A DNA stretch of 32,000 nt from Candidatus Iainarchaeum sp. (GTDB taxonomy: Archaea > Iainarchaeota > Iainarchaeia > Iainarchaeales > CSSED10-239). Of the stretch, positions 7,044 through 22,522 are shown in pieces (position 1 is the stretch's first letter; every line of letters starts with the position of its first letter). A model generated the notes under the pieces. It saw only the letters and a program-made list of their open reading frames with translations, was not told where the DNA came from and searched no databases. Location of the stretch: contig PWLL01000008.1 of the NCBI GenBank assembly GCA_003559395.1, forward strand, positions 292 to 32,291, written 5' to 3'. Both the position numbers and the translations under genes were made by a program.

Positions 7044-7072
7044 ATTATAGTATAAAAACACTATGAAGTCAA
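7044..7072 (-). promoter_or_regulatory. Sigma-70/sigma-A type early promoter
   Basis: The minus strand reads TTGACT (7072-7067), an exact 17-nt spacer, then TATAAT (7049-7044). It is preceded by an A-run and lies about 20 nt upstream of the SD of the XRE gene. Confidence 0.65.
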
Positions 7073-7147
7073 GGCTTTTTTTAACTAAATTAAATAATAT
7101 ATGGTTTAGATCATGGTTTGTGTTAATCAGGATCGTATCATATGCTC

Positions 7148-7209
7148 CTAAAAGACAAAAGACAACCCCAAAAAACAAAAGATAACCCTAAAAGTCAAAC
7201 AAAAAAACC
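7148..7209. repeat. Three tandem 20-21-bp imperfect A-rich repeats (iteron-like)
   Basis: CTAAAAGACAAAAGACAACCC / CAAAAAACAAAAGATAACCC / TAAAAGTCAAACAAAAAAACC. On the minus strand the core is GGGTT(A/G)TCTTTTG. The array sits between the late terminator and the early promoter. Confidence 0.35.
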
Positions 7210-7230
7210 GCCAGTCATATAAACTGGCGG
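7201..7230 (-). terminator. Rho-independent terminator ending the late/lysis operon
   Basis: The minus strand reads CCGCCAGT-TTATATG-ACTGGCGG (perfect 8-bp stem) followed by TTTTTTTGTTTG. It lies about 120 nt downstream of the endolysin stop. Confidence 0.75.
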
Positions 7231-7349
7231 CCACAAATCAAAATATCCATTCTAAGGGGTCTGACAGACGATTTAAGAAGTGTTGGTATGATATACCAGG
7301 CCCCTACTATAAAACTGCGATATTACCCCGGTTTTGTGGGCCGGTTTTA

Positions 7350-8156
7350 TCACTTTTTGAATCTGCCGGTGATATTCTTAAATGTTACCCACAACTCCAT
7401 TATTTTTTCAATAGAATTCATTAAAACGTCTTTTTTTACTGGTATCGGGATAAAGTTTTCAAGAAGTTTATAGGCAACTCCTGCCATACCGAGTACCAGA
7501 TTCCGTTTCGCTTCTCCGCCACCTTCTTCTGGACCTGCTTGTTCTGCTAACTCAACCCATTTCTCTATTTTATCAGACAATTTTCTGACGCCATCTAGTA
7601 TAGAAGGAAGAGAAGTGAGGATTTGGGTAATCTGGGTAACCTTAGCTAACATGTTTATGTCCTCCTTGTTTTCTTGTATGGGTTCCGGCGCAAGGTCTAA
7701 CAGATTGCGTTCGGTCATAATACTTACCAGTTTTCTTGCATACTCAGGATCGGTTGCATATCCTGCTCTCTGTAGTTCCTCTGCAAACTCCACCGGATCG
7801 GATATCTCCCAGAGTTTACTGTATCTCTTGTTTCTTTTCAAAAACCGTTTATGATCCTCAATACTTTCCTGATAGTTGTTATATTTACGAAATCGTTCAT
7901 CTTTTACCAGAACTCTTTCGCCATTTATATATTCGTGGGTATCAATTACCACATACTCGTGCTCAGAACTGTTATGCCATTTGATACCGAAAAGGTTATG
8001 ACTATACTCACCTGTATATTTATCCGTAGGAACATATCGACCCCATCCGGTCTCAAGGGCCGCCTTTGCAATAATCACCGCCGCAGGAATTCCGTGCTCA
8101 CTTTGGATATCAAGAGCAGGTTTTTTCACCCTTTTTATAAAATTGTTAGCGACCAA
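7350..8156 (-). CDS. Endolysin: N-acetylglucosaminidase (FlgJ/LytD-type glucosaminidase domain) with an unassigned C-terminal 100 aa
   Basis: IPAAVIIAKAALETGWGRYV ... HNLFGIK ... FRKYNNYQESIEDHKRFL ... LQRAGYATDPEYARKLVSIM reproduces the hallmark blocks of the mannosyl-glycoprotein endo-beta-N-acetylglucosaminidase domain. Confidence 0.85.
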   Translation of the reverse strand: MVANNFIKRVKKPALDIQSEHGIPAAVIIAKAALETGWGRYVPTDKYTGEYSHNLFGIKWHNSSEHEYVVIDTHEYINGERVLVKDERFRKYNNYQESIEDHKRFLKRNKRYSKLWEISDPVEFAEELQRAGYATDPEYARKLVSIMTERNLLDLAPEPIQENKEDINMLAKVTQITQILTSLPSILDGVRKLSDKIEKWVELAEQAGPEEGGGEAKRNLVLGMAGVAYKLLENFIPIPVKKDVLMNSIEKIMELWVTFKNITGRFKK

Positions 8157-8171
8157 TAAACAAACCCTCCT

Positions 8172-8588
8172 TTAACGCAGATTACTAATTACCAATTGTA
8201 TGATCCCCAGAACAACCATGCACGCCGACAATCCTATTCCCAACCATTTAGCGAGTTCTTTTTTGATTTCTTTTTCCATTTCGTTCATGTTTTTTATTGT
8301 ATTGGCCTCTCTTTCCATCATAGTTGTATATATTTCTTTGAAACCTTTCTCCACCTTTTCCTTCAATCGATCATGAGCCGCCCAGGTAGAAAGTTTTTCT
8401 TTTTGTAGCGCCGACTTATGTAGCCCCGCTTTTATTTCTTTAATATCCGTTCTCATTTCTGCAATTATCTCGTCCAACAATTCGCGTCTTGTTTCGTCTT
8501 TTGCTCTCCATTCTGAAATTGTTCTGATTATGCCATCCATTTGTTCTACAGTATTTTTTAGTTTGTTGTGTTCTGGACAGCGCTCCAA
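8172..8588 (-). CDS. Holin-like lysis protein: coiled-coil N-terminus with a single C-terminal TM helix (XhlA-like topology)
   Basis: 138 aa. Charged helical N-terminal region, then WLGIGLSACMVVLGIIQLVISNL at the extreme C-terminus. Lies immediately upstream of the endolysin. TTG start 6 nt after GGGGAGGG. Confidence 0.45.
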   Translation of the reverse strand: MERCPEHNKLKNTVEQMDGIIRTISEWRAKDETRRELLDEIIAEMRTDIKEIKAGLHKSALQKEKLSTWAAHDRLKEKVEKGFKEIYTTMMEREANTIKNMNEMEKEIKKELAKWLGIGLSACMVVLGIIQLVISNLR

Positions 8589-8610
8589 TCATAACCCTCC
8601 CCAAGCATAA

Positions 8611-8657
8611 ACACTCCTGGGCTCCGGTTGGATCTGGTTATCGGAGCCCAGGAGTGT
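8611..8657 (-). terminator. Perfect 16-bp stem-loop between the giant gene and the lysis cassette (attenuator or RNA-stability element)
   Basis: ACACTCCTGGGCTCCG (8611-8626) and CGGAGCCCAGGAGTGT (8642-8657) are exact reverse complements with a 15-nt loop. On the minus strand the hairpin is followed only by TTTATGCTT, a poor U-tract. Confidence 0.45.
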
Positions 8658-8659
8658 CT

Positions 8660-11600
8660 CTATTCTGCAAAAAGCATCAATGCTCTTTGCACCGATTCAT
8701 CAGTAACGTAAGGTCGAGCCTCGCCGCTTCTTTGCGCTCCGGTAGCATCTACTCCGAGTTGTATCAGTATATTAGCATAGTGTTCCGCTTCTTCCCGGTC
8801 GCCGCGATCTACCGCGTTCCACAGATTCCCGTAATATTCAGTACGCAGTTTAGATACCGCCTGTTTTTCCTGTTCGGCAGGATCCAGGCCATTAAGTACA
8901 GCAGCTTCATCTAACTGTTGTTTGAGACGTAACAGCTGACTGCCTGGTGCTATCTGCTGGTATGTTCTCTGCCACCAGCTCGGGTCTACCCTGGCGCGCC
9001 AGAGGTCCTCATATCCCTTCTGGGCCTGCCACCAACCCATCCCACGACGCATAGGCATTGTAAAAGCAAAGTTATTACCACGCAGGGAGAAGGGTACGAA
9101 CTTCTCGTAGACCGCCCTTACTCTTTCGTCCATCTCCTGGTAGAAAGGCATATCTCCTTCTCGCCAGGGCATAGGCCAACCGCCCGGTCCGGCTTGAGTT
9201 CCGGTCGTTTGTTCTAAGGCAGTTCTTACTACCGGACTAAACTTTGAACCAAACAGGTATGTTATAGGATCATCGAAATACCGTAGTATCTCTCTGGCCT
9301 GTTTACCTGGAGCTGCGTAGTACCTTCGTTCATCATCGGGATCGTAAGTACCAATAATCTTTCGCGCAGCATGGATTATTGGTGTAACGTCTATATCTGT
9401 TCTTCTTCCAGGTTCATTCTCCCAGGCCCAGCGTCCGGTTAGTGCTCTGTTGGCGATATTAATTGCTGCTAACATACTGATCAACATTGATATCCAGTAT
9501 CGGGCACCAAATTTGCGCACAACAGGGTCCTTGTTCTTTTTAAATGGAAGGTTCTCATATAGCGTTCTACCGAAGATCCGCATATTAGTATAGGTATAAT
9601 CAGGAGATAGCCACAATAATTTCATTGCCTGTCTTACTCGCGGGGTAGCCCAGAAATGAGATTCCCATTCCTGACCGCCGAAAGCATCGTTTACCATCCT
9701 TGCCACTTCTTCTTTTATCTCTCGTATTTTCTGTGGCGAAGCATCTTTAGCGTTCACTTTCTGATCAGAAAGTGCTTCTTTAGCCCATTCGTAATAGGTG
9801 ATAGCTTTAAGACCAGCATAATATTCATTCCACAGCTTTCTATCATACCACTCATTAGCCTGCCGCATTTTACGCACCAGACTTCCGGCACCAGGAATTT
9901 TTCTGGTGTGAGCTTCTAATTTTCGCAGGTCCTGGTTTATGCGGCGCATATGAGCATCAGGTATGGGATCGAATACTACACCGTGCATTATAGCATCCCT
10001 GAGTGCTTCCGGGGATCCACTTATCAGGTCTAATCCCAGTTGATGGGTCCTGCGAATAACAGCAGACTCATCAACTTCTTTAACCTCTTCTCCTACTGTA
10101 AAGAATCCGCGTAGGGGTTGAGTTATTTTTGCCAATGCGGCCTGCGCACTCTCGGTAAGATTCCAGAAGTGAAAACCGCTCAACTTTAAAGACAGACCTT
10201 TTGCATACGCGTTGAAAGCCTCTATAATCTGTAGCGGTTTCCAATGGAAAGGCTGTTCAAAGACCTGTTTGGTAATTTTATATGCCTCCGGGTCAACCGC
10301 AGCCTTACCTTCCCATAGTATTGTAGTGCCGTCTCTGGCCTGTCTCGCGTAGTATTTATTTATAGCCGGATGATCAACAAGCGGCCAGTGTGGAGGAGCC
10401 TGATTACTCTTTTGAATTATCGGTTCGCCTTCATCATTAGCGATTTTAGTTAATTCGTGGACGAAGGCCCTGTTAAGCGCACCCTTCCAGTTCAGTTCGT
10501 GCCAGAGATAGTGCAGTTCTGCTATGTTCTGGGTGCGCGGAACCAAACCTGCCTCCACAGCATCTTCCAGTGTAGGGATGGTTCTCTGCATAGCACTCGG
10601 AACGCGTTTAGTCCATCTGTAAGCAAACTCTTTAATTCGCTTAGGTTTGTTCTCATAAAAGTGCAGCAGATAATCTTCAAGGTATGTTACATACTCTTCA
10701 TCACCAACAACCTCACGCATAAAACGGTTCAGGTCCTGTCTTGCTTTTTCCTGAAAGTACCTATACTCCGCTAATGCCTGCCGCATTTCAGGGGTAAGTT
10801 CTTCTTGTATTTCTTCAGCGGTTTTGCCAGTCCTGATATTTTTAACTTCTTCAACGGCAGCACCCATATCCTCAAGCTGTTCTTCGGTAAACCGTGCTGA
10901 CCAATCTATCTTCCTATAGCCAGCCTCGATCTGCCGTAACCTGAACAACCTAGACCAAGATTTAATGATCGTTTTTACATTATCCTTATAATCATCAGTT
11001 AGATACTCGCTGGGGAGCAAACGCTCAACTTCCTCAATAGGCCGTATCGCAGAAACATCTATCTTCCTTTTCATTTCATGCCGTTTCTGAATGATGTCCT
11101 GTATCTTCTGATGTAAGTCAGGGTTCTGCCTGATCTGCATGTCGAGGCCCTGCGCTACATCTGGTGCTAAATTGCGAGCCATTTCAGTGTTGAGGAGATA
11201 CATTGTATAGAAGTCGGCCATTAATTCGGTATGTTTGTTCCGGTATCTGTCCAGTTCGCCCTCTTCCGGCGGTCTTACCTGTTTAGCAACCGCCTTTAAC
11301 TGTTCCCTTAACTCCATCTCTCCAACTTCAAGATCCGGGAACCGTTCTTTAATGCTGGAAGGATATTGGTTGTTATTTATCCTGTAATCAATTACATGAG
11401 CTACTTCATGGCCGAGAGTTTCAAGGTTAGTAACATCTCTGGTCTCAATACGCTCGTCACCACCAATATCAGTGAACCGTGCAGCTGCCTTAGTCCGAAG
11501 TCCAGTGTACCTCGCTGGAGCCGCAAGTTCTGCGGCCAAAGAAAAGACCTCGACCATGAATTCATCAGGTACGGGGTCAATGTCCAGCCGTTCTTCTATG

Positions 11601-14600
11601 CGGTACATCTCTTCTATCGGCTCGGAATCGGGTGGAAGCATCTTAACTATATTCAAATTATGTTTGGTTAAGTCTTGAAGTGTCGGGAGTGCTCTTTCTC
11701 CTACCGGAACGAAGTATCTAGTATTGTACTGGATAATTTCACTGATTAACCCTGCGTCAAGAAGTTGCTGGCGGTTAGTTGTGAGATCCGGTCCAGCATC
11801 CTTCTTGAGTTCTATACGATAATCACCGGAGACAGTGCTTCTTTGTAATATCCAACTATTATCAAGCATAGCTTTCCAATTCTTATCAACAATTCTACTT
11901 GGTACTGTGCTAATATCGATCTCCTCTAAATCACGACTAGCACCGAGACGTTCAAGGACATTATCGATCTCTTTCTCACTTATAACTCTGCCGAGGATGG
12001 TTTCTCCCTCTTCGGTGAGAGCACGTTTAACTTCGATCTTGCTTGTAGGTAGTTTATCCCAGATATCAAGCAGGGCTCCGGTTATCATGTGAACTGTCTC
12101 TTCTTCATACTCTGGTAGTTCAGCAACCTGTTCATCCCAAAGCTGACGCGCAACATCTTCTGCTGTCATATCAGGATCTGCTGGTTCTTTAATGGTGTTT
12201 TCATCTTCGTAGCGGGGGGAGAGGCCGGCTCTATCAATCCCCTTATTTATTGCCTCTTTTGTTTTCTCGATACCCAGACGCCTAACAGTATTCCTGGCAT
12301 CTTCTATTGCTCGTAGTTCGTTGCTGCCATCTCCCAACTTAGCCCCTGATTTTCCTTCGGTAACTATATACGCCATCTGACCGGAACGGCCTGGATGAAC
12401 GAAGGCGTCTATATCCTCAAATCCTTCAATCTCTACCTCTTTGCCATCCACGGCGACAAACTCTTTTCCATCATGTACGAAGTATACATCTTCTTCTACC
12501 GTTATTATCTCCCAGGTGCTCTCGCGAAACTGGTCTTTTTCAAGAGGTCTCCCTCGTCCGGGCCTCTGGTCGATTAAGCGTACCATCTCAACCACTTCAC
12601 CAGACTTCTTGGTACGGGTGCCTGCTTCTACCGCAAGAACAATGTTTTTAGATCGTTGGTTTTGGAAGTAACCTATATGTCGTTCAAGAAAGGCGGGGCC
12701 TCCGTCTCGGAAGTCTGCACGAGTATGGTCGAATGTTATGGGATATACCTTATTCTTGACATTGAGCTTAATGTACCGAGTATCAGCAGCATCGTCTCTC
12801 TCTACTACGGATCGATCTTCGACAGCCTCGGTAATATCTGCGTGTAGGTTTTCAGTGCCCTTGTCTACTTCTCCGGCCTCTTCTGCTCGCCCATAGACCT
12901 CATTATGTTCTACCTCGAAGGCTTCAAAGACCTGGTTCTGTAAGTGTGGCTCTAACCCTAATATTCTGTTAAGGAATTTCTTGGTATCTCTCAGCTCATC
13001 AGTATCTTTAAGGTTGCCTTCATCTGTAAGAATGTCGTCTTTTATGCCCATTCTTTCTGATATAGTAGATAACCCTTCGTCAATAAACTCATACTCATCA
13101 TTGGAAAGGTTAATATACATTTGCATCAGAGCATCTCTCGCAAAAGGACTGCTCAGATCGTCCTCATTATGGAACAATCCAGAACTCTCAGCCCCACGCT
13201 CCCCGCGCGATAGTGCCCCAAACTCATTAAGACGTTGAGCAACGGTTGAGAGGAACCGTTTTTCACCTTTGAGGTTAGTAGTAACCAAAATGTATTCCGG
13301 AGGTTGTTTTTGGAATGAACGGTGAGTCCGTCCAAACCCCTGGAATACCTCTTTAACGTCCCAGCTTGGCTCTAAGAGATAATGTCTTCTTAATCTTTGG
13401 TTCTTGAAATTTAAACCCGCATGATAGTCAACACCGGTATTGCCGATCTTGCTGAACAGCAGTATATGCTTTTCGTCGTCAAGAAAACGCCTAACCTCTT
13501 CCTGGACATACCCTGTTCCTCTGGTGTCTATATATTTGTTACCTTCCTCATCCTCCAAGACGCGTTCTTTGCGTCCTGTTATTTCAGAGACTCTATCTTT
13601 ACCAAAAGAGTCTACCAACATATCAATCGGTGACTTAGGAAGCCTTACACCGCCCAGGTGAGCAAGCAATTCGTTCTTTAAGCGTACTGCTTCAGGGTCT
13701 TTCACCGTATTGCCTTCGCTATCACGAACGGGTGTCCATACCGTTCTTGTCTTTCCGTCCTCTGTGGTAATTTTTACGGGTTCGTATTTCGTTGTCGGAA
13801 AGGCGCGTTCTACATAATCCATAATCATACTGGTTGGAGATACGTTAAAGTCCTGCAAAGACATATCAGGATCAGTACGGATACGCTGTAACTCTCTGCC
13901 CATAGAGGCTTCTCCTGTTTTATCTACCTGGATAACCGGAGCGTAACCCTGTTCTAAATCTTTCTCAATGCTCTCTATGAGAGTTGGCATTTTCATGGCT
14001 GTAAGCAGATCGCTCCAAAATCGCTGGTAAGTACCGTAAAACTGTGATTTTGCGGCCCTTTTTGCCTGGGGTGATTCCCCCGCCCCTGTTGATTCCATAG
14101 CCGCGGACATGTTTTGAAAGAGGATCTGCCACGCTTCAGCAGCCACGTTATACTGCTGTATTTGTTCTTCTGTCAGCCGGTGTTCTGTGTGGTCATATTC
14201 AATTCCTTCGTAGCTGATCTGTCGAGAAAGGTAAGCACCTTTTTGTTTGGAGTCGCGGGCAATAAGCTCCATACCGCCTAACCCGCTTGCGGATATCTGT
14301 TCAACGAAATCCTCCATGCTGGCAAAAGGTGTTCCCTCGCCCCACAGGCCAAGGCGTTCAGCATAGGCAAGCGTTTCTGGGTCGTCAAATGCTGTAGCTG
14401 ACGAATACTCTATTCGTGCTTCCGGGAAGGCCTCTTGTAATCGCAGACCGGCCATGGCCTGTAGGCTAGGTTCTTTCTCAATTCCAGAAGCGTTCTGCAT
14501 CTTATGTGATTCGTCAAAGACAATTACCCCGTCGAAATCATCGTCAAGCCATTCCATAAGCTGTTCTAAACGTGTTTGTTCCCCTTCGGGCACAATCCTT

Positions 14601-17600
14601 CGTGTTCCATATCCATCACCGGCTGGCTCAACACTATATCCTCCGCGTATCATTGAATATGTTGTATAGAATATGCCATGATCAGGGTCCAGTTCATCGT
14701 TTTTGCTATAATCATTCTGGGCATAAAGTATATCTTCTGACATATGTTCAGGATCGTGCTGGCCAACATCGCGTATATCCCTTTTGGCGGCCTCGTGCAT
14801 ATCACCCCAACTGGCACTAATCCATACCGCTTTATCTCGACCCTGGCGGAGATTATCCAGTATTATAGCTGCTATAGTACGCCCCTTACCGGTACCTGTG
14901 CCATCACCGATCATGTGTCCCTGCCTCACCCCAGAGGGGAGCATTTTCTGGTGAGATTGACCGGCATACACCACGGCTTCTAGCTGTGATTCGCTTATAT
15001 CACCGGATTCTATTAGTTCTTTTGGCAAGTCTGGAGCATAGGTTATGTCTGGCGGTTCTGAGTCTGCCATAGCAGCCGTTTCCGATATCTGCGCCGGATG
15101 TTCCTTTGCTCCCTCTACCTTCAGTTTGGATGGCTTATACTTGCCTGTAAAAATATTATCGCTTAGTTTTCCTCTTCTCTCGTCCTCTCGCTGCTCGACT
15201 CTGAGAGTGCTATCAGTTCGGTCAGGCTCGTTACCCGATTCGAGCTTATCAGGATCGCCAGGTCCTCTAACAGCCGGATGGCGGCTTCCCTTGGGTTTTG
15301 GTCTTGCATCATCCTGAGAAGGTCCCGTCGGTTCCCCAGGTCGAGGTGCTTCAACAGGAGGTTCAACCTCTGGGACGGGCTCATCAGGTCTAACATCTGG
15401 AACGTCTCGGACAGGTTCATCTCTCTCATCCCCAGGGCGAACGGCCACGTCGGGCCGGGTCTCAGGTTCATCCCGAGGTGGAGCAGGTTCACCAGGTACA
15501 GTTCGGATACCGGGTCGCTCTTCGGATGGTAATCTATCAGGTTCTTCTGGTACGCCTGGTTCAGGATCTGGAGGGCTAACTGGTTCTCTGGGATCAGGTT
15601 CAACTGATATATGTTTGCGATCTTCTTTCACTCCCCTCAACATGGGCACGGCCTGTCGTACATCTTTGACCTGCCCCGTTACTGGTGTTTCTGTAGTTGG
15701 ACCATCCTTATCAATAACGACAAGCTGAACACCAAAAGAAGTTCCGTATTTACGATACTCGCTGCCGTCTATCCCTATATTAGCCCTAACATTGTACCTT
15801 TCCTGTATATCCTCCCACCATTCTCTGTGCGCGGGTTTATCAAGTGCCATCCCTTCACCCAGGATAGCTACCAACCTGCCATCATCACGAAGGAGTTTAA
15901 GAGCTTCCTCCATATGGCTTCGAACATTACGGGTATCTCTAACGCCCTCTAATCTACCTGCAGTCGACGAAAACGGGGGGTTCATAACCACAAGGGAAGG
16001 CGGTTCTATTTTATCATGAAGTATTGCGTGTAAGTGCTCTGCATTTTCAGTATACACCGCATCGAATCCCATTTCACGCAATATATTAGCGCGGCGGTCG
16101 GATAATTCGTTGACCATAACCTGCTGGACTTGCATGCCCTTTGGGAAAACAGCCAGCCCGCCGATTCCTGCACTGGGTTCTAATACTATATCCTGCTTCA
16201 TTATAGAGGCTGCCCAGTTAGCCAGGTAAGCAATGTTCGGCGGAGTAGAGAACTGCTGGAACTCTACACCCTCACCGGTGCGTTTGGTTTGAGTAGGAAT
16301 CTTATCTAAAATATCTTCCTGGATTCGATTCAAGACTTTTACTGCATGGGTATAATCTATATTCCTGTGTGTTGGAAACCTGCCTGGGTGTGAAAGTATA
16401 TATTTATTAATACCTAGCTCCATAGCATCATAAGCGTCTTTAGGGGTATATACTCCTTCGGCCTGTGTTCCCTGGTAAGCGGTATCTGCTATAGCGAAAA
16501 GGTCACGCCAACTAAACGAACGGCCTTTTTCTAGCATATCATGAACACGACCAGCAATATCTGTTTCTGGTAAGCGAGCTTTTGCTTTAGTGGGGTCTGT
16601 TGTTGGTTCATCGTCAGGCTTAATACGCAAGTCCTCTATAGCTGGCCTGCCGGTAGCTTCTTGTGTGAGTACAAACCGCTGTGCATCTTCGAGTGAACGG
16701 TGGTGTCCTATAACCTGTAACGGTCTCTTGAAATCATCCCCTGGGGTTTCGGCACGCAACCGGAAAGGTGTATCTGCTATCTTAGTGTCAGTGGTATCTC
16801 TATCCCTTACATCAACTATACTCCAGGGGGTGCCTGGCAGAGTCCATATTTTGCCACCGAGAACAGGATCAGGAACCTCTGTCCATTCTTCTGTGTCGGC
16901 TGGTTCTTCTGGTTCGAAAGCATCCTTAAAGCGCTCTCTTAATTCTTCTAATTGCCGTTTTTCATCTAAACTAGCCACCCTATCCGCTCTCAGCTTTTCG
17001 TCAAGAGCTTCCATGATCATATCGGCTTGATCAAAAAGCCCCTGGCGAAGAAGTTGCTCGTTCAGTTCTTGCATACTGCCAATATTTAAAAGAGCATCTG
17101 TCTCTGGTACGTCTGCAAGTTGTGGATCTCTAGTTACATCTACACTCTGCATAATCCTCTCGTGTTCTGCTTCGCTATCTATACGAAGATCCTTAAACCG
17201 TTCAAATTCCTGCGGGGTAATGTGCTTTAAAACCTCTGTGCGGAATTCTTCCGGGTCCTGCATTTCGTACATGGCTGTTCCTTCAAGCAGATCGATTATT
17301 ACACTGGCATCACCATAAAGCCATATAAGTTTTTCGCCGGTCCACTTAATAGCTTCGTAATCATCTTCCAATACCTCTGATAGTACCCAGCGGTTAAGCG
17401 GAAGAGATACATCCGGTGCATGATCGCCAGTAAGCGGGAATTCCGTCATAACAGGTTTAGGACCGGGAACGATTTCAGATACAGACGCAACAGTGGGTTC
17501 CTCTTCTTCCACCGGAGCTTCTTCTACCATAGTCAACCTGCCAGGACTAACACTTTCAACCCTTTCAACAGGACGACCAGCAACCATCGATATCTGGTCA

Positions 17601-19606
17601 ACATGAACGCTAACCATAGTACCTAAACCCTCATAATCAATAACACTTCTTACGGTACCAGTCAACTCTTCTCCTTCTGGAGTGGTCCATGATACGCGGT
17701 CTTCTCGTTTGAATGTAGGTGCTTCAACAGGTTCTTCCGGGGGTATCTCTTCTAACCGTTGTTCCAGATCGTCTATCATCTGGTAATCCCTCTGAACAGC
17801 TCCTACCCCACCAATCACAGGCGTTCCTGCTGCTTCTGCTTGTTCTGCCTGTTGAAGTTTTTCTTCAAGGCGTTGTTTAATTTGTCCTATATCTTCTGGA
17901 GTTAAATCTTCCAGAGGCTTATCTACTGATATGGTATGGAATGGTGAATCCTCAACCACTTCAGGAGGTTCTACCGTGGGAGCGTCAGGCATAGGTGCAG
18001 AAGGTGTTTCTACAGTAAGACCTTGCGGCCCCTCAACTATACGGAAAGGCCCTGTCGGTCCTGTTGATATGGCCGGAGTAGGTATTTCCATAGTAGTCGG
18101 GATAGTAGGTTGTACCTGTTGCGGCATATCAGGAGCAGTCGGTACCCCATAAGGCGCCGCTTGAGTAGCCGGCGGCGATATCTCCATACTGGGATCCGGT
18201 GTGGTTCCTGCGGGCCAGGCGAATTGAGTTCTTTGTACCTCTTGTTGTACCCCTTGATCTACCTGCTGGGTTGCCACTTGTTTGGCCTGTGGTGACATAT
18301 CGCTGCTCTGGATCATATTATAGGCGGTGTCCCTTGCTATCTGAAGTTCTTTAAACTTTTCAGGATCTCCACTGGGCACATCAGGGTGTAATGTTTTTGC
18401 AATATGCCTATAGGCACTCTTTATCTGATCCCGTGTTGCCGTCTCTGGCAGTCCCAGTACAGAAAAGGCTCTACTTCTTATCTCCTGCTCCCTTACTACA
18501 TCACTGCGGGTGGCTTCTGCTTCCTGTCTTAACCTTTCACGGTAAGCGTTTAGCTTGCGTTCTATGGTCTCAGCATCATCCCCAGGACTTATACCAGCAT
18601 CCGCAAATATCTTTTTCCGGTTATCGCGGGCTGCATGGAATGTTTTATGTACCCGGTTAATCTCTGCCTTATCCTGCGGAGATAGTGCTGCTGTGTTTAC
18701 CAGTCCGAGAATAGTAAGGCCAACCACAGAGGAACCCATATCCATAAGATCCAAAGGTTCTCTTTCGTCTGGGGGAGTTAATGCCCTTCTTGTTACCTCA
18801 GAAGCGGTTACTCCTGCCGGTGCAGAAATTAAGGATCTGGTCAGGCTTTGCGCATATGGATATAACTGATCCGGTACGCTTGTAGGAAGTTCTTGCGCTA
18901 ATCGCCCGGCGTAAGGAGCAACAGCACCCATCGCACCACCAAAAGCCAATGAGCTTGCGAAGTCTGCTGCGGTAGGCCGGTGTTCTTCGGGCATACCTTC
19001 AAGTTCCATTCCTCGTATGCCAGCGAAACGAGCAGCTCCACGGGCCGCACCACTCAATGCCTCGGGCGTCTGTGCTGCTCTAAGCGCAAGTTCAGGAGCA
19101 TACCTCGCTCCTGCATACCCCAGGGCCTGTGTTCCGGCCTGGGTAAAAGGTCCCATAAGCTTTAATCGTCCCAACCAACCGGCGGTTGATCCCAGGGTGT
19201 GCATGGTCTGATCGATTCTTTCATCACCAGTTGTAGAATAAGTACCCTGGCGCCTTTCTACTACTCCCGGCTGCATACCATAACTCTCCTGCCAGGCTTC
19301 CGAGAACCGGCTGAGAGCTGCATCTACACCAGGAGCCACCCTTCCTACCCATGTATCTTCATCAGTAAGAAACCTGGTTACAGGTTGTTTAATCTTTTCT
19401 ATCTCCTGCATCAGCAGAGGATTGTGTCCTACCCAGTCTATGGCCCGTTGATATGGAGTAGAAGGTGTGAACCCCGTATCTTCTGCCCACGATGCAATCG
19501 CGGCCCCGGGTGTTTGTGGGGCCGTAGCTTGCGGGTCCTGAGCTTGTGGGCTGGTGGGGGTAGGTTGTTGTTCTTGCCATATATTTGCAAACGGGTTAGT
19601 TGCCAT
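8660..19606 (-). CDS. Giant 3,648-aa polyvalent virion/ejection protein (J-domain + N6-adenine MTase + Strawberry-notch/SNF2-like helicase + HExxH zincin + TM-containing C-terminal region)
   Basis: Uninterrupted 10,947-nt ORF. The SD GGAGG lies inside the last codons of the upstream gene. Motifs are listed as separate sub-features below. It is the last structural gene before the lysis cassette. Confidence 0.9.
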   Translation of the reverse strand: MATNPFANIWQEQQPTPTSPQAQDPQATAPQTPGAAIASWAEDTGFTPSTPYQRAIDWVGHNPLLMQEIEKIKQPVTRFLTDEDTWVGRVAPGVDAALSRFSEAWQESYGMQPGVVERRQGTYSTTGDERIDQTMHTLGSTAGWLGRLKLMGPFTQAGTQALGYAGARYAPELALRAAQTPEALSGAARGAARFAGIRGMELEGMPEEHRPTAADFASSLAFGGAMGAVAPYAGRLAQELPTSVPDQLYPYAQSLTRSLISAPAGVTASEVTRRALTPPDEREPLDLMDMGSSVVGLTILGLVNTAALSPQDKAEINRVHKTFHAARDNRKKIFADAGISPGDDAETIERKLNAYRERLRQEAEATRSDVVREQEIRSRAFSVLGLPETATRDQIKSAYRHIAKTLHPDVPSGDPEKFKELQIARDTAYNMIQSSDMSPQAKQVATQQVDQGVQQEVQRTQFAWPAGTTPDPSMEISPPATQAAPYGVPTAPDMPQQVQPTIPTTMEIPTPAISTGPTGPFRIVEGPQGLTVETPSAPMPDAPTVEPPEVVEDSPFHTISVDKPLEDLTPEDIGQIKQRLEEKLQQAEQAEAAGTPVIGGVGAVQRDYQMIDDLEQRLEEIPPEEPVEAPTFKREDRVSWTTPEGEELTGTVRSVIDYEGLGTMVSVHVDQISMVAGRPVERVESVSPGRLTMVEEAPVEEEEPTVASVSEIVPGPKPVMTEFPLTGDHAPDVSLPLNRWVLSEVLEDDYEAIKWTGEKLIWLYGDASVIIDLLEGTAMYEMQDPEEFRTEVLKHITPQEFERFKDLRIDSEAEHERIMQSVDVTRDPQLADVPETDALLNIGSMQELNEQLLRQGLFDQADMIMEALDEKLRADRVASLDEKRQLEELRERFKDAFEPEEPADTEEWTEVPDPVLGGKIWTLPGTPWSIVDVRDRDTTDTKIADTPFRLRAETPGDDFKRPLQVIGHHRSLEDAQRFVLTQEATGRPAIEDLRIKPDDEPTTDPTKAKARLPETDIAGRVHDMLEKGRSFSWRDLFAIADTAYQGTQAEGVYTPKDAYDAMELGINKYILSHPGRFPTHRNIDYTHAVKVLNRIQEDILDKIPTQTKRTGEGVEFQQFSTPPNIAYLANWAASIMKQDIVLEPSAGIGGLAVFPKGMQVQQVMVNELSDRRANILREMGFDAVYTENAEHLHAILHDKIEPPSLVVMNPPFSSTAGRLEGVRDTRNVRSHMEEALKLLRDDGRLVAILGEGMALDKPAHREWWEDIQERYNVRANIGIDGSEYRKYGTSFGVQLVVIDKDGPTTETPVTGQVKDVRQAVPMLRGVKEDRKHISVEPDPREPVSPPDPEPGVPEEPDRLPSEERPGIRTVPGEPAPPRDEPETRPDVAVRPGDERDEPVRDVPDVRPDEPVPEVEPPVEAPRPGEPTGPSQDDARPKPKGSRHPAVRGPGDPDKLESGNEPDRTDSTLRVEQREDERRGKLSDNIFTGKYKPSKLKVEGAKEHPAQISETAAMADSEPPDITYAPDLPKELIESGDISESQLEAVVYAGQSHQKMLPSGVRQGHMIGDGTGTGKGRTIAAIILDNLRQGRDKAVWISASWGDMHEAAKRDIRDVGQHDPEHMSEDILYAQNDYSKNDELDPDHGIFYTTYSMIRGGYSVEPAGDGYGTRRIVPEGEQTRLEQLMEWLDDDFDGVIVFDESHKMQNASGIEKEPSLQAMAGLRLQEAFPEARIEYSSATAFDDPETLAYAERLGLWGEGTPFASMEDFVEQISASGLGGMELIARDSKQKGAYLSRQISYEGIEYDHTEHRLTEEQIQQYNVAAEAWQILFQNMSAAMESTGAGESPQAKRAAKSQFYGTYQRFWSDLLTAMKMPTLIESIEKDLEQGYAPVIQVDKTGEASMGRELQRIRTDPDMSLQDFNVSPTSMIMDYVERAFPTTKYEPVKITTEDGKTRTVWTPVRDSEGNTVKDPEAVRLKNELLAHLGGVRLPKSPIDMLVDSFGKDRVSEITGRKERVLEDEEGNKYIDTRGTGYVQEEVRRFLDDEKHILLFSKIGNTGVDYHAGLNFKNQRLRRHYLLEPSWDVKEVFQGFGRTHRSFQKQPPEYILVTTNLKGEKRFLSTVAQRLNEFGALSRGERGAESSGLFHNEDDLSSPFARDALMQMYINLSNDEYEFIDEGLSTISERMGIKDDILTDEGNLKDTDELRDTKKFLNRILGLEPHLQNQVFEAFEVEHNEVYGRAEEAGEVDKGTENLHADITEAVEDRSVVERDDAADTRYIKLNVKNKVYPITFDHTRADFRDGGPAFLERHIGYFQNQRSKNIVLAVEAGTRTKKSGEVVEMVRLIDQRPGRGRPLEKDQFRESTWEIITVEEDVYFVHDGKEFVAVDGKEVEIEGFEDIDAFVHPGRSGQMAYIVTEGKSGAKLGDGSNELRAIEDARNTVRRLGIEKTKEAINKGIDRAGLSPRYEDENTIKEPADPDMTAEDVARQLWDEQVAELPEYEEETVHMITGALLDIWDKLPTSKIEVKRALTEEGETILGRVISEKEIDNVLERLGASRDLEEIDISTVPSRIVDKNWKAMLDNSWILQRSTVSGDYRIELKKDAGPDLTTNRQQLLDAGLISEIIQYNTRYFVPVGERALPTLQDLTKHNLNIVKMLPPDSEPIEEMYRIEERLDIDPVPDEFMVEVFSLAAELAAPARYTGLRTKAAARFTDIGGDERIETRDVTNLETLGHEVAHVIDYRINNNQYPSSIKERFPDLEVGEMELREQLKAVAKQVRPPEEGELDRYRNKHTELMADFYTMYLLNTEMARNLAPDVAQGLDMQIRQNPDLHQKIQDIIQKRHEMKRKIDVSAIRPIEEVERLLPSEYLTDDYKDNVKTIIKSWSRLFRLRQIEAGYRKIDWSARFTEEQLEDMGAAVEEVKNIRTGKTAEEIQEELTPEMRQALAEYRYFQEKARQDLNRFMREVVGDEEYVTYLEDYLLHFYENKPKRIKEFAYRWTKRVPSAMQRTIPTLEDAVEAGLVPRTQNIAELHYLWHELNWKGALNRAFVHELTKIANDEGEPIIQKSNQAPPHWPLVDHPAINKYYARQARDGTTILWEGKAAVDPEAYKITKQVFEQPFHWKPLQIIEAFNAYAKGLSLKLSGFHFWNLTESAQAALAKITQPLRGFFTVGEEVKEVDESAVIRRTHQLGLDLISGSPEALRDAIMHGVVFDPIPDAHMRRINQDLRKLEAHTRKIPGAGSLVRKMRQANEWYDRKLWNEYYAGLKAITYYEWAKEALSDQKVNAKDASPQKIREIKEEVARMVNDAFGGQEWESHFWATPRVRQAMKLLWLSPDYTYTNMRIFGRTLYENLPFKKNKDPVVRKFGARYWISMLISMLAAINIANRALTGRWAWENEPGRRTDIDVTPIIHAARKIIGTYDPDDERRYYAAPGKQAREILRYFDDPITYLFGSKFSPVVRTALEQTTGTQAGPGGWPMPWREGDMPFYQEMDERVRAVYEKFVPFSLRGNNFAFTMPMRRGMGWWQAQKGYEDLWRARVDPSWWQRTYQQIAPGSQLLRLKQQLDEAAVLNGLDPAEQEKQAVSKLRTEYYGNLWNAVDRGDREEAEHYANILIQLGVDATGAQRSGEARPYVTDESVQRALMLFAE
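9437..9496 (-). other. Predicted transmembrane helix in the C-terminal region of the giant protein, aa 3371-3390
   Basis: WISMLISMLAAINIANRALT is flanked by basic residues (RKFGARY ... GRW). A second hydrophobic segment, SSVVGLTILGLVNTAAL, lies at aa 291-308 near the N-terminus. Confidence 0.4.
11207..11539 (-). other. HExxH zincin-like metallopeptidase motif region inside the giant protein, aa about 2690-2800
   Basis: LETLGHEVAHVIDY (HEVAH aa 2733-2737, nt 11396-11410), with a downstream E in HTELMADFY as a possible third ligand region. This is a motif-level call only. Confidence 0.45.
13187..14995 (-). other. Strawberry-notch/SNF2-like superfamily-2 helicase module inside the giant protein, aa about 1538-2140
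   Basis: Walker A GDGTGTGKGRT (aa 1567-1577), motif II VFDESHKMQN (DESH aa 1698-1701), motif VI FGRTHRSFQ (aa 2091-2099). These are followed by YILVTTNLKGEKRFLSTVAQRLNEFGALSRGER, which closely parallels the Strawberry-notch C-terminal block. Confidence 0.8.
15197..15604 (-). other. About 135-aa Pro/Glu/Asp/Arg-rich disordered linker between the MTase and helicase modules
   Basis: EPDPREPVSPPDPEPGVPEEPDRLPSEERPG ... DEPETRPDVAVRPGDERDEPVRDVPDVRPDEPVPEVEPPVEAPRPGEP. The DNA is a degenerate reiteration of GAACCTG-type units. Stops are depleted in several other frames on both strands here. Confidence 0.7.
15737..16309 (-). other. N6-adenine DNA methyltransferase domain inside the giant protein, aa about 1100-1290
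   Basis: FQQFSTPP, then motif I VLEPSAGIGGLA (E1143), then motif IV VVMNPPFSS (NPPF aa 1209-1212, nt 15971-15982). The order and spacing are typical of amino-MTases. Confidence 0.8.
18308..18478 (-). other. J-domain (DnaJ/Hsp40 N-terminal domain) inside the giant protein, aa 377-433
   Basis: RSRAFSVLGLPETATRDQIKSAYRHIAKTLHPDVPSGDPEKFKELQIARDTAYNMI. The invariant HPD is at aa 407-409 (nt 18380-18388), with a basic helix II and an F/KEL helix III. Confidence 0.8.
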
Positions 19607-19609
19607 CTT

Positions 19610-21931
19610 TTAACCTCCAATTACACTATATATATCATCGAAGGTGACCCCTGGGGGTAACGCTTCCTCGAATTCATCTCTTATTGCCGGCGAGATAGCT
19701 TCCAGGTAATAAAGTAGCTCTTCGATATCGTTCAATGTACCATCCCTAACCAAGACTGTTTCCAGGTTAGACGCAATCATATCAGCAGCGAAACCTTCCT
19801 GCCCTGCTACCTGCGGGACTATATTCGGCAGTATGCTTCTTACATAACTGGCTATCTCTCTATCAGCATCAGGATCGCCTTGCGCCTGGAACGTGAGATC
19901 ATCATCCAGTGCCGCTTCTGCGGGTTCCTCAACCGGTGTCATATCTTCTGCCTGCTCGGTTGGTTGCGGAGCCATACCAGGTTCTGGAGTTGGTACCTCT
20001 CCAGGTTCGGTAATCTCTTCCGTTCCCAGAGCTTCGTCAACCAGGTCTACCTGAGGCAATCTATCTTCATAACCTACTGGCCGTTCAAAGGCTTCTTCAT
20101 GAGTAGGTATACCGCGAGTTTCTTGTGGTGGACCGGCTAATGTCGTTGTCGGTCTATCCACCGGGGTAGGCCCTGCTTCTGGCTGAAGGTCCATACCCAT
20201 TACAGCATCAACATCGCGTTGTTCTCTTTGTCCTAAGCTCGGATCCTCATCATAAATAGCCGCAAGTATTTCATCAAACGGCACCTGATATGCTTCTTCT
20301 GTGGACTGTTTCTGTGCTTCTGACAGGCCCTCAAGTATGCGGATAACATCGTTTAGTGTGGCGTCCTGATATTGAGTGGTTACCGCAGTAATAATATCAT
20401 CTACCGCATAGGATACGTCCCCTTGATATTCTTCTGGTGCTGCCGGAAGTGGTGTTGCCTCTTCAGGTACCGTCTCTACATCTGGCACGACCTCTTCCTC
20501 TGTTATCTCAGGGGTCAGTCCAGGCATATCTAAAGCCGGATCCGGTTCAAATTCGGGATCCAGTTCAGGAGATACGGCCATTGGGTCTACCTCCGGCTGT
20601 GGCTGTGGGGTAGCTTCGGGAGTTATACCGTATCTTCTAAGGGCATCACCAACCTGCCCGAAATGCTGTCCGGCGCCACCACCCCAGAGTCTTCCCAGCC
20701 ACGAACCCTGCTCTTCCCCGACCATCTCTTCGGGAACAGGGGTACCATCTTCATAGACAGGTCCATACTCGGCATGGTTCCAGTACGGGAGCCCGGAAAT
20801 ATCTACTCCATCGCCCTCGGGATTCCAGCCAACAAGCTCTTGCAGTTCTTCTGGTGCAAGTACCGGCTGGGCCAGTGGATCTATCATCCCTTCTAGGTAC
20901 CCGGGATGAATCCAGTTACCTTCTTGATCGGAGTGCCATACGTTTCCATCTTCATCTTGATATCTGAATATAGGGCCAAACTGTGGGTGGTCTGTCCCTG
21001 TATATACGCCATCCGCTGGTGGTGGTGCTAATGTCATGGGTTGCGGTCCGAAATCGCCACCAAAAGCTCCCCACTGGTCCTGCGGTGCAAAACCCATACC
21101 CATAGTACCCTGCATGTTTTCATTAATAGTCCGTTCTCTTTCATTTAAAATGTTCTGTAGTTCTACTTGTGCGTTAATAAGATTTGCATTGGCCTGGTCA
21201 ATAGCTGACTGACTAACTCCAGCAGAGATCAGATTGTCACGTTCGACTTCCATAAGGTTAATGTTTTTTTTCATCATATCTGTTTCTAATTCAAGGTGGT
21301 TAAGACGATGTTGCTGTTCAGCTGGCATTATATTATCGAGATAATATCTATGCTCTCTAAGTCCCAGATCAATTTCTTCTACCTGTCTATCATAAAGCTC
21401 CCGATTATGTGCGTTTAAATCAGCCGCCTGTCTTACATCTAATGACGCTAGTTGATTGTGTAACCGCTGTTGCGCCTGCAATAATGGGCTCATATCCTGA
21501 AAGTGTTGTGTTTCGGCTGCTATCCCCTGTGCTGTGGCGTCCTGCACTCCGGTCAGGGAACGGGTATAATCTGCCTCTGCACCCAGTCCCTCCTGCCGTG
21601 CCAGACTTTCTCCGGTAACCAGCGGAGCATCGACAACACTATGACCGAAAAACTGTTGAAAATAAGCGGGATTAAATGCCTGCTCACCAAACATACCAGG
21701 GTCTACATCAATTCCTGCCCCGGATATCATCTGCTGAACCGGAATATCTTCAAATCCAGTTAAATAACGTGCTTCTTCTTCTAACATTCTATTCCTTAAA
21801 TCTGCTTCCTGTAGTGCGCGTTCCGCAAGCTCCTGATCGTCTCTAAATGTTTGCAACTGCATATAACGTCCAAAAGGATCCGCTTGCGCTAATCCGCTTG
21901 CGAATCCTCCAACGCCTGCTCTATAAGGCAT
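19610..21931 (-). CDS. 773-aa coiled-coil, acidic, low-complexity structural protein; internal-core/ejection protein by position (T7 gp15 slot)
   Basis: N-terminal Gly-rich MPYRAGVGGFASGLAQ. Long Q/N/E/L coiled coil at aa about 140-270. The C-terminal half is Pro/Glu-rich. Only 3 nt separate its stop from the giant gene start. The size matches T7 gp15 (about 747 aa). Confidence 0.5.
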   Translation of the reverse strand: MPYRAGVGGFASGLAQADPFGRYMQLQTFRDDQELAERALQEADLRNRMLEEEARYLTGFEDIPVQQMISGAGIDVDPGMFGEQAFNPAYFQQFFGHSVVDAPLVTGESLARQEGLGAEADYTRSLTGVQDATAQGIAAETQHFQDMSPLLQAQQRLHNQLASLDVRQAADLNAHNRELYDRQVEEIDLGLREHRYYLDNIMPAEQQHRLNHLELETDMMKKNINLMEVERDNLISAGVSQSAIDQANANLINAQVELQNILNERERTINENMQGTMGMGFAPQDQWGAFGGDFGPQPMTLAPPPADGVYTGTDHPQFGPIFRYQDEDGNVWHSDQEGNWIHPGYLEGMIDPLAQPVLAPEELQELVGWNPEGDGVDISGLPYWNHAEYGPVYEDGTPVPEEMVGEEQGSWLGRLWGGGAGQHFGQVGDALRRYGITPEATPQPQPEVDPMAVSPELDPEFEPDPALDMPGLTPEITEEEVVPDVETVPEEATPLPAAPEEYQGDVSYAVDDIITAVTTQYQDATLNDVIRILEGLSEAQKQSTEEAYQVPFDEILAAIYDEDPSLGQREQRDVDAVMGMDLQPEAGPTPVDRPTTTLAGPPQETRGIPTHEEAFERPVGYEDRLPQVDLVDEALGTEEITEPGEVPTPEPGMAPQPTEQAEDMTPVEEPAEAALDDDLTFQAQGDPDADREIASYVRSILPNIVPQVAGQEGFAADMIASNLETVLVRDGTLNDIEELLYYLEAISPAIRDEFEEALPPGVTFDDIYSVIGG

Positions 21932-21948
21932 TTTCTAACCTCCCTCTA

Positions 21949-22491
21949 TTAGCTCTGCCACGGCCAACCGTGTTCAGAAAAATAATCGATAGCATACGGT
22001 GCCGCGGTTCCTACAGCTTGCCCTATTCCTTGCCACATCTGTCCACTACGCTGCGCATCCATATCCTGTGCGCGTAAAGCTCTGTCCGCTAGTGCTGATT
22101 GTCTCTGAAAATCCTGCTGTTGAAGTCCTGTCGCATATTGCGCCAGGTTGGCCTGGTGCTGCATGGACAGATCACCGGCAGTAGACCTCCTCAAAGCGGC
22201 AGCCGGTAGTTGTCCGAAAAAACCTCTCTGCATGCTTTGGTGGTCTATGTTAGATAGTGTTTGATCCATAGTCCGCTGAAAACCCGGATCTAACGCCTGT
22301 TGCGCCCGTTGATAAGCATCATCCCAGGGGAGTTGTTCTACCTCCTGCTCTTGCGGTTGCTGTGTTGCCTGCGTATCGCTGCTACTACCACCAAATGCCC
22401 GCTCTAATAGGCCGCCCCCTATAGTACCTATAACGCCACCAACAGGGCCGCCTAAAGCTGTGCCTAAAGCCCCTCCGACGGTCTTGAACAT
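21949..22491 (-). CDS. About 180-aa protein with an N-terminal glycine zipper; internal-core/ejection protein by position (T7 gp14 slot)
   Basis: MFKTVGGALGTALGGPVGGVIGTIGGGLLERAFGG followed by a Q-rich helical region. GGAGG followed by a 9-nt spacer favours the ATG at 22491. Confidence 0.45.
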   Translation of the reverse strand: MFKTVGGALGTALGGPVGGVIGTIGGGLLERAFGGSSSDTQATQQPQEQEVEQLPWDDAYQRAQQALDPGFQRTMDQTLSNIDHQSMQRGFFGQLPAAALRRSTAGDLSMQHQANLAQYATGLQQQDFQRQSALADRALRAQDMDAQRSGQMWQGIGQAVGTAAPYAIDYFSEHGWPWQS

Positions 22492-22522
22492 AATATACAA
22501 CCTCCTTTATCCATGGTTCGCT

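Follow-up and report, generated by a model that had tools for sequence, protein, structure and literature searches.

A giant polyvalent protein ending a phage virion gene run joins a J domain, a plasmid-type methyltransferase-helicase gene and a widespread C-terminal module

The window analysed here is a stretch of 32,000 nucleotides from contig PWLL01000008.1 (assembly GCA_003559395.1, Candidatus Iainarchaeum sp.) and covers nearly the whole of this 32,291-bp NCBI contig. It is dominated by one giant gene, which lies among phage virion genes. The open reading frame (ORF) occupies 8660..19606 on the minus strand, as do all of its features given below. It consists of 3,648 codons plus stop, starts with ATG, has zero internal stops and takes up 34% of the window. 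Thus, the original prediction of a single unbroken ORF over a third of the stretch stands, and all seven motifs named there (HPD 407, EPSAGIGG 1143, NPPF 1209, GDGTGTGKGR 1567, DESH 1698, GRTHRS 2092 and HEVAH 2733) are found at exactly the residues given. The protein is identical to the library protein P0020 and is an NCBI singleton on its contig; a look-up of this exact protein among assembled contigs gave no record. Megablast of the gene against GenBank phages gives no match, and neither does tblastn of aa 1-1100 and aa 2261-3648 against the same phages.

The giant protein is built of three parts: an N-terminal region with a J domain (aa 1-1016), a methyltransferase (MTase)-Strawberry notch (Sno) helicase cassette of the plasmid type (aa 1017-2650) and a conserved C-terminal module (aa 2690-3648), the C-module. 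It had been proposed that more than half of the chain carries no motif. This is too strong, since both the cassette and the C-module have recognisable relatives, and the truly orphan portion is aa 1-1016 minus the J domain.

The C-module (8663..11539) defines a large protein family. A HMMER search of 1.84 billion cluster representatives retrieves 1,058 of them at E<=1e-3, including 274 at E<=1e-30, and nearly all are metagenomic. Aligned over 984 columns with the C-terminus of the family member P0001 (2,339 aa), the module shows 32% identity. It also shares 29% identity with the C-terminal end of a 1,830-aa protein encoded on an IMG/VR contig, the one locus found in IMG/VR with an alignment-based query; a single-sequence query found nothing there. 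In the best 150 of the 1,058 members the module stops a median of 32 residues before the C-terminus, and the part in front of it ranges from ~60 to 3,340 residues. In some relatives the C-module even stands alone, as a protein of ~1,000-1,140 aa. No Pfam or PHROG model covers it, and there is no Pfam match to an LPD or MPTase family.

At the start of the C-module lies a zincin-like metallopeptidase core (aa ~2680-2810, 11177..11569) with HEVAHVID at 2733-2740 and TELMAD at 2793-2798. H2733, E2734, H2737, E2794 and D2798 are invariant in 49 aligned members and D2740 is nearly so. The HExxH motif, typically in the form HE.GH..D, is present in 77 of the 80 members that include the module start. 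The AlphaFold2 model of aa 2658-3648, built on the 49-member alignment, has a predicted local distance difference test (pLDDT) score of 87.1 and a predicted template modelling (pTM) score of 0.86. It starts with a helix, three strands, the HExxH helix and the Glu helix, which corresponds to the zincin core as described by Iyer et al. (PMC5512222). The best match in a PDB fold search is anthrax lethal factor (probability 0.89-0.94, E ~0.05-0.2). Hence, the HEVAH motif, first noted as a zincin signature, is borne out by the conserved catalytic residues, by the zincin topology of the model and by lethal-factor-like best PDB matches (E>0.01), and with the three-stranded sheet, the Glu helix and the Asp three residues after HExxH the core is that of a phage-type zincin metallopeptidase. 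However, what had been described as this motif followed by about 900 unassigned residues is one conserved module with over 1,000 relatives.

The ~820 residues past the protease core are mostly helical in the model, and nothing in the PDB fold search covers them. In the BFVD fold search the C-module has 31 matches at E<=1e-3. Their largest named group consists of chunks of 'Large polyvalent protein associated domain-containing protein' entries from uncultured phages, and proteins of Escherichia phage PTXU04 and Cellulophaga phage phi19:3 are also matched. A crAss-like-phage RNA polymerase (RNAP) subunit and a Pseudomonas phage 'putative internal (core) protein' (E 1.4e-3, TM 0.24) are weak matches. 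A hydrophobic helix of the C-module (aa 3372-3390, 9437..9493) lies within a long helix of the model and has a Kyte-Doolittle mean of 1.40, compared with 1.61 at the aligned place in P0001.

The original prediction called for a comparison of related phages for module swapping, and swapping is what we find: in front of the same C-module the cargo differs and includes ParB, SNF2, RadC, GGDEF and MTase domains. P0001 has a ddrB-ParB domain in place of the cassette. P0021 is the closest relative by C-module (48% identity) and carries a degenerate J domain, GGDEF, an Eco57I-type MTase and an SNF2 helicase. The MTase-helicase function thus seems to be swapped there for a non-homologous dyad. We also note that the J domain of P0021 (encoded at 10001-21067 of locus L005) has lost its HPD, with HEA in its place. 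In P0042 the C-module is 34% identical and the MTase-Sno cassette 39% identical, about as distant as the plasmid copies described below. Fifteen further long members (2,648-4,333 aa) contain SNF2 with Helicase_C (5-6 members), ddrB-ParB (3), RadC (3), Eco57I MTase (2), MutS_I, DnaJ, GGDEF, GNAT and others. In mid-size members (1,428-2,215 aa) any Pfam domain is found in at most 5 of 25. Hence, family members look as if enzymes had been added repeatedly to a basic protein of ~1,400-2,000 aa, at sites ahead of the C-module.

The giant protein has as its cargo a whole MTase-Sno protein such as plasmids and integrative and conjugative elements (ICEs) encode, embedded as a cassette (11657..16558). 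Annotated as 'strawberry notch family protein' or 'bifunctional class I SAM-dependent methyltransferase/DEAD/DEAH box helicase', eighteen stand-alone proteins of 1,412-1,496 aa align with it from their residues ~20-45 to ~1,390-1,480, that is, end to end and colinear with aa 1017-2650. Tblastn of the cassette matches 685 plasmid records at 37-44% identity; 340 of the 685 cover >=80% of it and 320 are typed conjugative. Methylomonas plasmids give the best matches. Among 50,697 GenBank phage records, tblastn with aa 1101-2430 gives 17 matches (E<=1e-5), all of them to the MTase part, with none to the helicase and none in P1. The copy on pRL7 sits among ParB, toprim and DUF736 genes. Compared with the plasmid and ICE proteins (e.g. 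pRL7 WP_041936622.1 and those of the Methylomonas plasmids), the phage copy has 34-44% identity and the same catalytic motifs, which are invariant. It differs in being placed inside a virion-module gene rather than standing alone, in its longer inter-domain linker and in an insertion of 115 aa. Iyer et al. (PMC5512222) mention 'a few instances' of the Sno-type helicase in polyvalent proteins and cite a Methylomonas example.

The MTase domain (aa 1101-1310, 15677..16306) is matched by PHROG 'DNA methyltransferase' families (E 5e-20 to 3e-13) and by PADLOC MTase_II. Its LEPSAG.G and NPPF motifs and the S-T-P motif upstream of them (FSTP) are invariant across the 18 plasmid homologues. It therefore has the TP motif, motif I and the NPPF/Y motif IV in the order of EcoKI/TaqI-like amino-MTases. 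The assignment as N6-adenine MTase is supported by these matches and motifs, but Pfam has no match to the domain above threshold. A P/E/D/R linker (aa 1311-1475, 15182..15676), longer than that of the plasmid proteins, leads to the Sno helicase (aa 1502-2252, 12851..15103). The latter had been predicted from its motifs and is now identified clearly, with Pfam AAA_34 at aa 1502-1820 (E 3e-101) and Helicase_C_4 at aa 1993-2252 (E 7e-69). Its Walker A, DESH and motif VI show no variation in the alignment with the plasmid homologues.

Most of the '550 unassigned' residues said to follow the helicase belong to the cassette as well, as the alignment with the plasmid proteins demonstrates. An insertion absent from the plasmid homologues (~115 aa, aa 2371-2485, 12152..12496) is modelled with pLDDT <50. 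It is followed by a C-terminal alpha/beta domain (aa 2486-2650, 11657..12151; pLDDT ~85-90), which aligns with the last ~150 aa of the plasmid proteins. This domain has no PDB fold match; it may be equivalent to the winged helix-turn-helix (wHTH) domain at the C-terminus of Sno proteins in Iyer et al. (PMC5512222). The model of aa 1993-2700 is mediocre (pLDDT 68) and gives weak SNF2/Mfd lobe-2 matches only in the PDB fold search. The cassette profile has no match among PDB sequences.

Two simple histories of the cassette were considered and dropped. Recent acquisition is rejected because of the uniform GC content at third codon positions (GC3), which is 0.34-0.44 in every part of the giant ORF and the same as in the adjoining genes. 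A single capture of the Sno cassette by phages is unsupported, since the P0042/P0041 copies are 39% identical to that of the giant protein and the plasmid copies 34-38%.

The N-terminal region begins with an orphan Gly/Ala-rich part (aa 1-375, 18482..19606). As noticed originally, it is rich in Gly and Ala, which together reach 31% in aa 101-200. A word-indexed search of 5.8 billion proteins with aa 1-1100 finds no homologue; aa 1-375 has a single weak match, to the family member P0120. A moderately hydrophobic segment (aa 285-308, 18683..18754; Kyte-Doolittle mean 1.55-1.58) is a candidate membrane-interacting helix. This segment and that of the C-module had been called transmembrane. Both are indeed hydrophobic at the places given, but moderately so, with 19-residue means of 1.58 (aa 290-308) and 1.40 (aa 3372-3390). 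Throughout the family, the part ahead of the C-module has its strongest hydrophobic peak at a median of aa 256, independent of protein length, with a mean of >=1.4 in 32 of 65 full-length members. A 'G-L/F-VNT' motif common to the hydrophobic segments of the giant protein and phage N4 gp50 was discarded as chance; it is not conserved in the family.

About 70 residues after this segment comes the J domain (aa 376-440, 18287..18481) with HPD at 407-409. Pfam DnaJ matches aa 381-425 with 38.4 bits against a cut-off of 27.8, the NCBIfam DnaJ and DjlA models match it too, and the PDB matches are the J domains of Sis1 and DnaJ (E 2e-5). The predicted J domain is therefore confirmed by three collections and has the characteristic HPD between helices II and III. 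Seven of the 150 family members have a J domain, always N-proximally (aa 304-583), with an intact HPD in four. We note that an N-proximal J domain in several members with differing cargo fits a role in the shared platform of these proteins, not in the payload. Between the J domain and the cassette are a P/Q/T-rich low-complexity spacer (aa 441-640, 17687..18286), recognised by its composition and with no homologue, and an acidic orphan region (aa 641-1016, 16559..17686) with a net charge of about -13 per 100 aa and no profile match.

The giant gene is the last of a run of virion genes. In the order of transcription, Ig-like and beta-propeller fibre-like proteins are followed by a 631-aa protein, which matches 'head closure', 'internal virion protein' and 'tail appendage' PHROGs, by a 131-aa 'virion structural protein' and then by proteins of 183 and 773 aa. 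The 183-aa protein (21949..22500, minus strand) has a Gly-rich hydrophobic N-terminus and is a candidate gp14/gp52-like protein by size and position only. The 773-aa protein (19610..21931, minus strand), helical in its N-terminal part and then P/E/D-rich, is by the same standards a candidate gp15/gp51-like tunnel protein; it has no match in the word-indexed protein search. Its TAA at 19612-19610 is separated by a 3-base gap from the ATG of the giant ORF at 19606, and GGAGG lies 8 nt upstream of this ATG, within the 3' end of the preceding gene. Such spacing and the GGAGG are compatible with the proposed translational coupling; the two genes do not overlap.

Three nucleotides past the stop of the giant ORF begins a perfect 18-bp hairpin (8609..8659, minus strand; -35.8 kcal/mol, z -5.7). 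It is trailed by UUUAU only and is not called a canonical intrinsic terminator; it could be an RNA-stability or processing element that closes the virion operon. Then come a 138-aa protein, an endolysin and a recombination module. The endolysin label of the original prediction holds (7350-8156, Glucosaminidase match, E 1e-34), but the holin label does not: the ORF 8172-8588 (minus strand) has no PHROG match and one sub-threshold Pfam match only. Its product has a charged coiled-coil-like N-terminal part and one C-terminal hydrophobic helix, and the true start is likely an ATG near 8540. About 120 nt past the endolysin stop is a canonical terminator (7232-7206, minus strand), and a sigma-70-like promoter with 11/12 positions lies at 7072-7044 (minus strand). 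Together they mark 7044-7232 as the place where the late genes give way to the recombination module, which encodes SbcC-like, RecT, hydrolase and single-stranded DNA-binding (SSB) proteins.

Two other proteins of the window deserve mention. The 707-aa protein at 26125-28248 (minus strand) has WD40/beta-propeller matches (aa 173-441) and a tail-fibre C-terminal match, which makes it an unusual receptor-binding candidate. The 366-aa protein at 30802-31902 (minus strand) is matched by PHROG 18805 in four separate stretches, so that it contains internal repeats. A tRNA scan found none.

Relatives of the giant protein occupy comparable places. In locus L001 the relative follows an SU10-type adaptor and a peptidoglycan-binding protein and has a peptidoglycan-binding lysin downstream; in L005 it lies 4.6 kb after the major head protein and ahead of an amidase (Amidase_2). 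L006 and L007 are contigs from two samples, of 41.5 and 22.4 kb. No lysis gene was recognised downstream of the relatives in L003 or L006. BLAST of the neighbouring proteins in the window (19610-25856) against the neighbours in L001, L003, L005 and L006 and against N4 gives no similarity. The phages at these four loci nevertheless have the C-module at 30-49% identity. Conservation of the module amid dissimilar neighbours means that it is either more constrained than its surroundings or horizontally mobile.

In the species-representative genomes of GTDB we found 10 loci with the module, all in metagenome-assembled genomes (MAGs): of Gemmatimonadota, Planctomycetota, Marinimicrobia and Peptococcaceae and in one archaeal bin. 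This number is a lower bound from one search pattern, and the majority of the loci lie on short contigs. Uncultured Gemmatimonadota, Planctomycetota and others seem to be the hosts, which explains the absence of the family from reference phage collections. In L011 (2518-5940), on a 450-kb contig of a Gemmatimonadales MAG, the nearest genomic relative of the C-module (46% identity) lies in an ORF of ~1,140 aa, overlapped by an 893-aa ORF upstream. Possibly this is a prophage in which the protein is split or the module stands alone, and it hints at the host phylum.

The giant protein is polyvalent in the sense of Iyer et al. 2017 (PMC5512222), as was originally proposed. It unites several unrelated domains (J domain, amino-MTase, Sno helicase and zincin core) and lies among late genes, with virion genes upstream and an endolysin downstream, as is likewise the case in relatives. 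Like the polyvalent proteins of that study, it places unrelated enzymes in one huge phage protein and contains the zincin hub domain (HExxH with Asp three residues on) and an MTase-helicase dyad; cargo of the ParB, GGDEF and RadC type is common to those proteins and to its relatives. However, the account of Iyer et al. (PMC5512222) includes no J domain. The ~820 aa past the protease core, with no Pfam family and no PDB fold, also set the giant protein apart.

P1 DarB resembles the giant protein as a large protein in which an adenine MTase is fused to a superfamily 2 (SF2) motor. The resemblance to DarB that had been claimed holds for the MTase-helicase dyad. It does not extend further: the motor is of the Sno type and not of the DarB/SNF2 type, tblastn finds no match in P1, and the giant protein is thus no member of the DarB family (LPD36, MTase and DarB-type SF2 helicase) by sequence homology. 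DarB is a myovirus protein and, to our knowledge, has neither a J domain nor such a C-module. It is packaged in the head and protects the incoming DNA in cis (as summarised in PMC5512222).

The original prediction placed the giant protein in the slot of T7 gp16. T7 gp14, gp15 and gp16 have 196, 747 and 1,318 aa, and ejection genes of this kind are recognised 'based on size and synteny' (PMC8954989). The run of 183, 773 and 3,648 aa before the endolysin, and that of 150, 644 and 3,500 aa in N4 gp52, gp51 and gp50, show the same pattern. Order and sizes are compatible with the proposed slot, but both neighbours are orphans. As gp16 does in T7 (PMC8954989), the giant protein may close a small-medium-large run behind the tail genes as its last and largest member; it ends the virion genes before lysis. 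Homology to gp16 is not detectable by domain content, the sequences not having been compared directly. The giant protein has no transglycosylase (SLT) domain in Pfam and PHROG scans and is 2.8 times larger. Among the 50 PDB matches listed for the C-module (all E >0.04) there is no T7 gp16 chain. A gp16-like domain or fold is therefore not found, and the sole link is the weak BFVD match to the Pseudomonas-phage core protein.

N4 gp50 is treated as an analogue of gp16. Its N-terminal domain binds lipid and is followed by a low-complexity linker, an enzymatic part in the middle and a C-terminal domain of huge size, and its chain is ejected as 'beads on a string' (PMC13434306). The giant protein is similar in its length, in its position after ejection genes of ~150 and ~650 aa in the case of N4, in the Gly-rich hydrophobic N-terminal segment and in the succession of linker, enzymatic middle and very large C-terminal domain (PMC13434306). 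The cargo differs, being an RNA polymerase in gp50 and a methylase-helicase here. A Pfam scan gives no RNAP domain in the giant protein, so that it is no virion RNAP (vRNAP) of the N4 type, and no sequence homology is detectable in the terminal domains or in any other part. The C-module has no detectable relation to gp50 in profile comparisons with 3 and 49 sequences (hhalign, hmmsearch; probability 0.08 and E 2 with 49 sequences). No N4 chain is among its PDB fold matches, although 9PNR, the entry of the gp50 C-terminal domain, may be absent from the April 2026 fold library.

Another precedent is gp47 (vb_24B_48) of phage phi24B, a polyvalent protein of 2,807-2,811 aa which was found in virions and is proposed to be an ejection protein (bioRxiv 10.64898/2026.04.10.717836). 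It, too, is giant and polyvalent and has a metallopeptidase; its phage is short-tailed. Its domains, LPD5, LPD1, LPD38 and MuF-C, are different, and in hhalign only the HExxH region co-aligns with the C-module (probability 0.2, not significant). With gp47 (bioRxiv 10.64898/2026.04.10.717836) and N4 gp50 (PMC13434306) as precedents, the fusion of enzymes to an ejection protein is less unusual than had been thought. For the J domain, the comparison is Rki of phage RB43, also a J domain encoded by a phage; it has HPD and acts on the DnaK of the host (PMC3486835). Rki is a small soluble protein (PMC3486835), whereas the J domain described here is one bead of 3,648 aa in a virion gene run. Altogether, the giant protein may be likened in its working to gp16, gp50, DarB and gp47, but it stands outside their families and the likeness would be one of function.

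Hence, we suggest with moderate confidence that the giant protein is a virion-packaged and ejected polyvalent protein with a DarB-like anti-restriction payload. We infer packaging and ejection from the gene position and from the precedents DarB, N4 gp50 and phi24B gp47. In the first step the protein would be packed into the capsid together with the two preceding gene products. With infection it would be released into the cell, either before the DNA or together with it, as are T7 gp16 and N4 gp50. The N-terminal region and the C-module would serve as the platform for virion entry and tail exit, and the middle as exchangeable payload. Since the protease core is kept even in members with no recognisable cargo, it may have an additional role in the platform itself.

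At the entry site the predicted J domain would bring in host DnaK, which may refold the ~400-kDa chain and perhaps help to pull it in. After entry the predicted Sno motor would travel along the incoming DNA while the fused predicted methylase marks adenines and shields the DNA in cis, as proposed for DarB; Iyer et al. argue that dyads of the DarB type move along and methylate entering DNA (PMC5512222). The predicted metallopeptidase would cut the long low-complexity linkers, or else process a target in the envelope or the host.

We also consider a more specific version of the entry step, in which the N-terminal J domain would work like the membrane-tethered J proteins of import motors (mitochondrial Pam18/Tim14). 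The N-terminus would settle at the inner membrane, and the J domain would then bring DnaK to the cytoplasmic mouth of the channel. The remaining ~3,200 residues would then be drawn in by an ATP-driven ratchet and refolded bead by bead, with later release by the protease. This analogy is speculative, and we regard it, taken as a whole, as improbable.

Several points weigh against packaging and ejection as the function of the giant protein. Both are deduced indirectly. The neighbouring proteins include no recognisable homologue of an ejection protein, the 773-aa neighbour being an orphan, and the C-module has no sequence relation to N4 gp50 or phi24B gp47. Its model is a compact, mostly helical globule and no obvious channel former, and the hydrophobic segments are borderline as membrane helices. 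The C-module alone forms the protein in some relatives, which means that a single-chain platform is not obligatory. Finally, the short-tailed morphology is itself presumed from the absence of recognisable long-tail genes in the 12 kb upstream and from the SU10-type adaptor in one relative.

The strongest alternative takes up several of these points. The giant protein would be packaged and injected as an effector carrier but form no conduit; the C-module would serve for capsid targeting and self-processing, and other products would carry out the ejection. The C-terminal region of N4 gp50 is required for encapsidation, and the metallopeptidases of polyvalent proteins have been proposed to process their chain (Iyer et al., PMC5512222). 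The compact globule with its protease core, the existence of stand-alone C-module proteins and the fact that fold and profile comparisons find the module unlike any channel-forming ejection protein are all in line with such a carrier. However, the module is retained in members with no recognisable enzyme cargo to release, the gene always stands where the largest ejection gene does and has its relative size, and the conserved hydrophobic helix of the module comes together with a positionally conserved N-terminal hydrophobic segment. We therefore hold the carrier to be a serious but rather unlikely explanation.

Alternatively, the protein could be a cytoplasmic enzyme, made late in the producing cell and never packaged, which methylates progeny DNA before it enters the capsid and relies on DnaK to fold or to assemble virions. 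Many phages have their DNA methylated ahead of packaging, and the case for packaging of the giant protein itself is indirect. Also, Rki, the soluble J-domain protein of phage RB43, is active in the cytoplasm (PMC3486835). However, such an enzyme leaves the conserved 950-aa C-module unexplained, which is present in enzyme-free members too, as well as the fixed place at the end of the virion gene run, the tight coupling to the preceding gene and the repertoire of ParB, RadC, GGDEF and SNF2, typical of delivered proteins (PMC5512222). We consider it quite improbable. An artefactual origin of the long ORF, through a chimeric assembly or through sequencing errors that joined several genes, is hardly credible: a single metagenomic contig is the only source of this exact sequence, but 10.9 kb are open in a single frame with GC3 of 0.34-0.44 in all parts, like the neighbours, P0042 (3,661 aa) has the same order of MTase, Sno and C-module on contigs from two independent samples, and the C-module also terminates ten other representatives of 3,019-4,333 aa.

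Thus, an ejected polyvalent protein with an anti-restriction payload is the reading that we prefer. This kind of protein, polyvalent and probably an ejected effector carrier, is already known, and giant ejection proteins have recent precedents. What is new is the J domain in such a polyvalent protein, the whole conjugative-plasmid MTase-Sno gene as the cargo of a phage virion-module protein, and the recognition of a large uncharacterised C-module family with enzyme-free and cargo-laden members. With the cassette, the flow of a gene for establishment or anti-restriction between conjugative plasmids and the virion proteins of phages is documented.

If the giant protein is packaged, the phage spends ~11 kb on one injected protein, which is about a fifth to a quarter of a genome sized like the related contigs (41-55 kb). 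The protein would bring into the cell a ready-made DNA-modifying motor together with a handle on the host Hsp70 system. If the Pam18/Tim14-like reading were true, phage infection would include a protein injection step powered by host Hsp70. The giant protein also bears on a question raised for N4 gp50, namely how proteins of 400 kDa pass through a 35-Å channel.

Last but not least, the ~820 post-protease residues constitute a confidently modelled fold with no PDB counterpart, present in >1,000 protein clusters. The family is a natural experiment in delivery: the same ends carry nothing, ParB, RadC, GGDEF, SNF2 or a whole plasmid gene. This variety of cargo could show what a phage tail lets pass and how cargo becomes attached.

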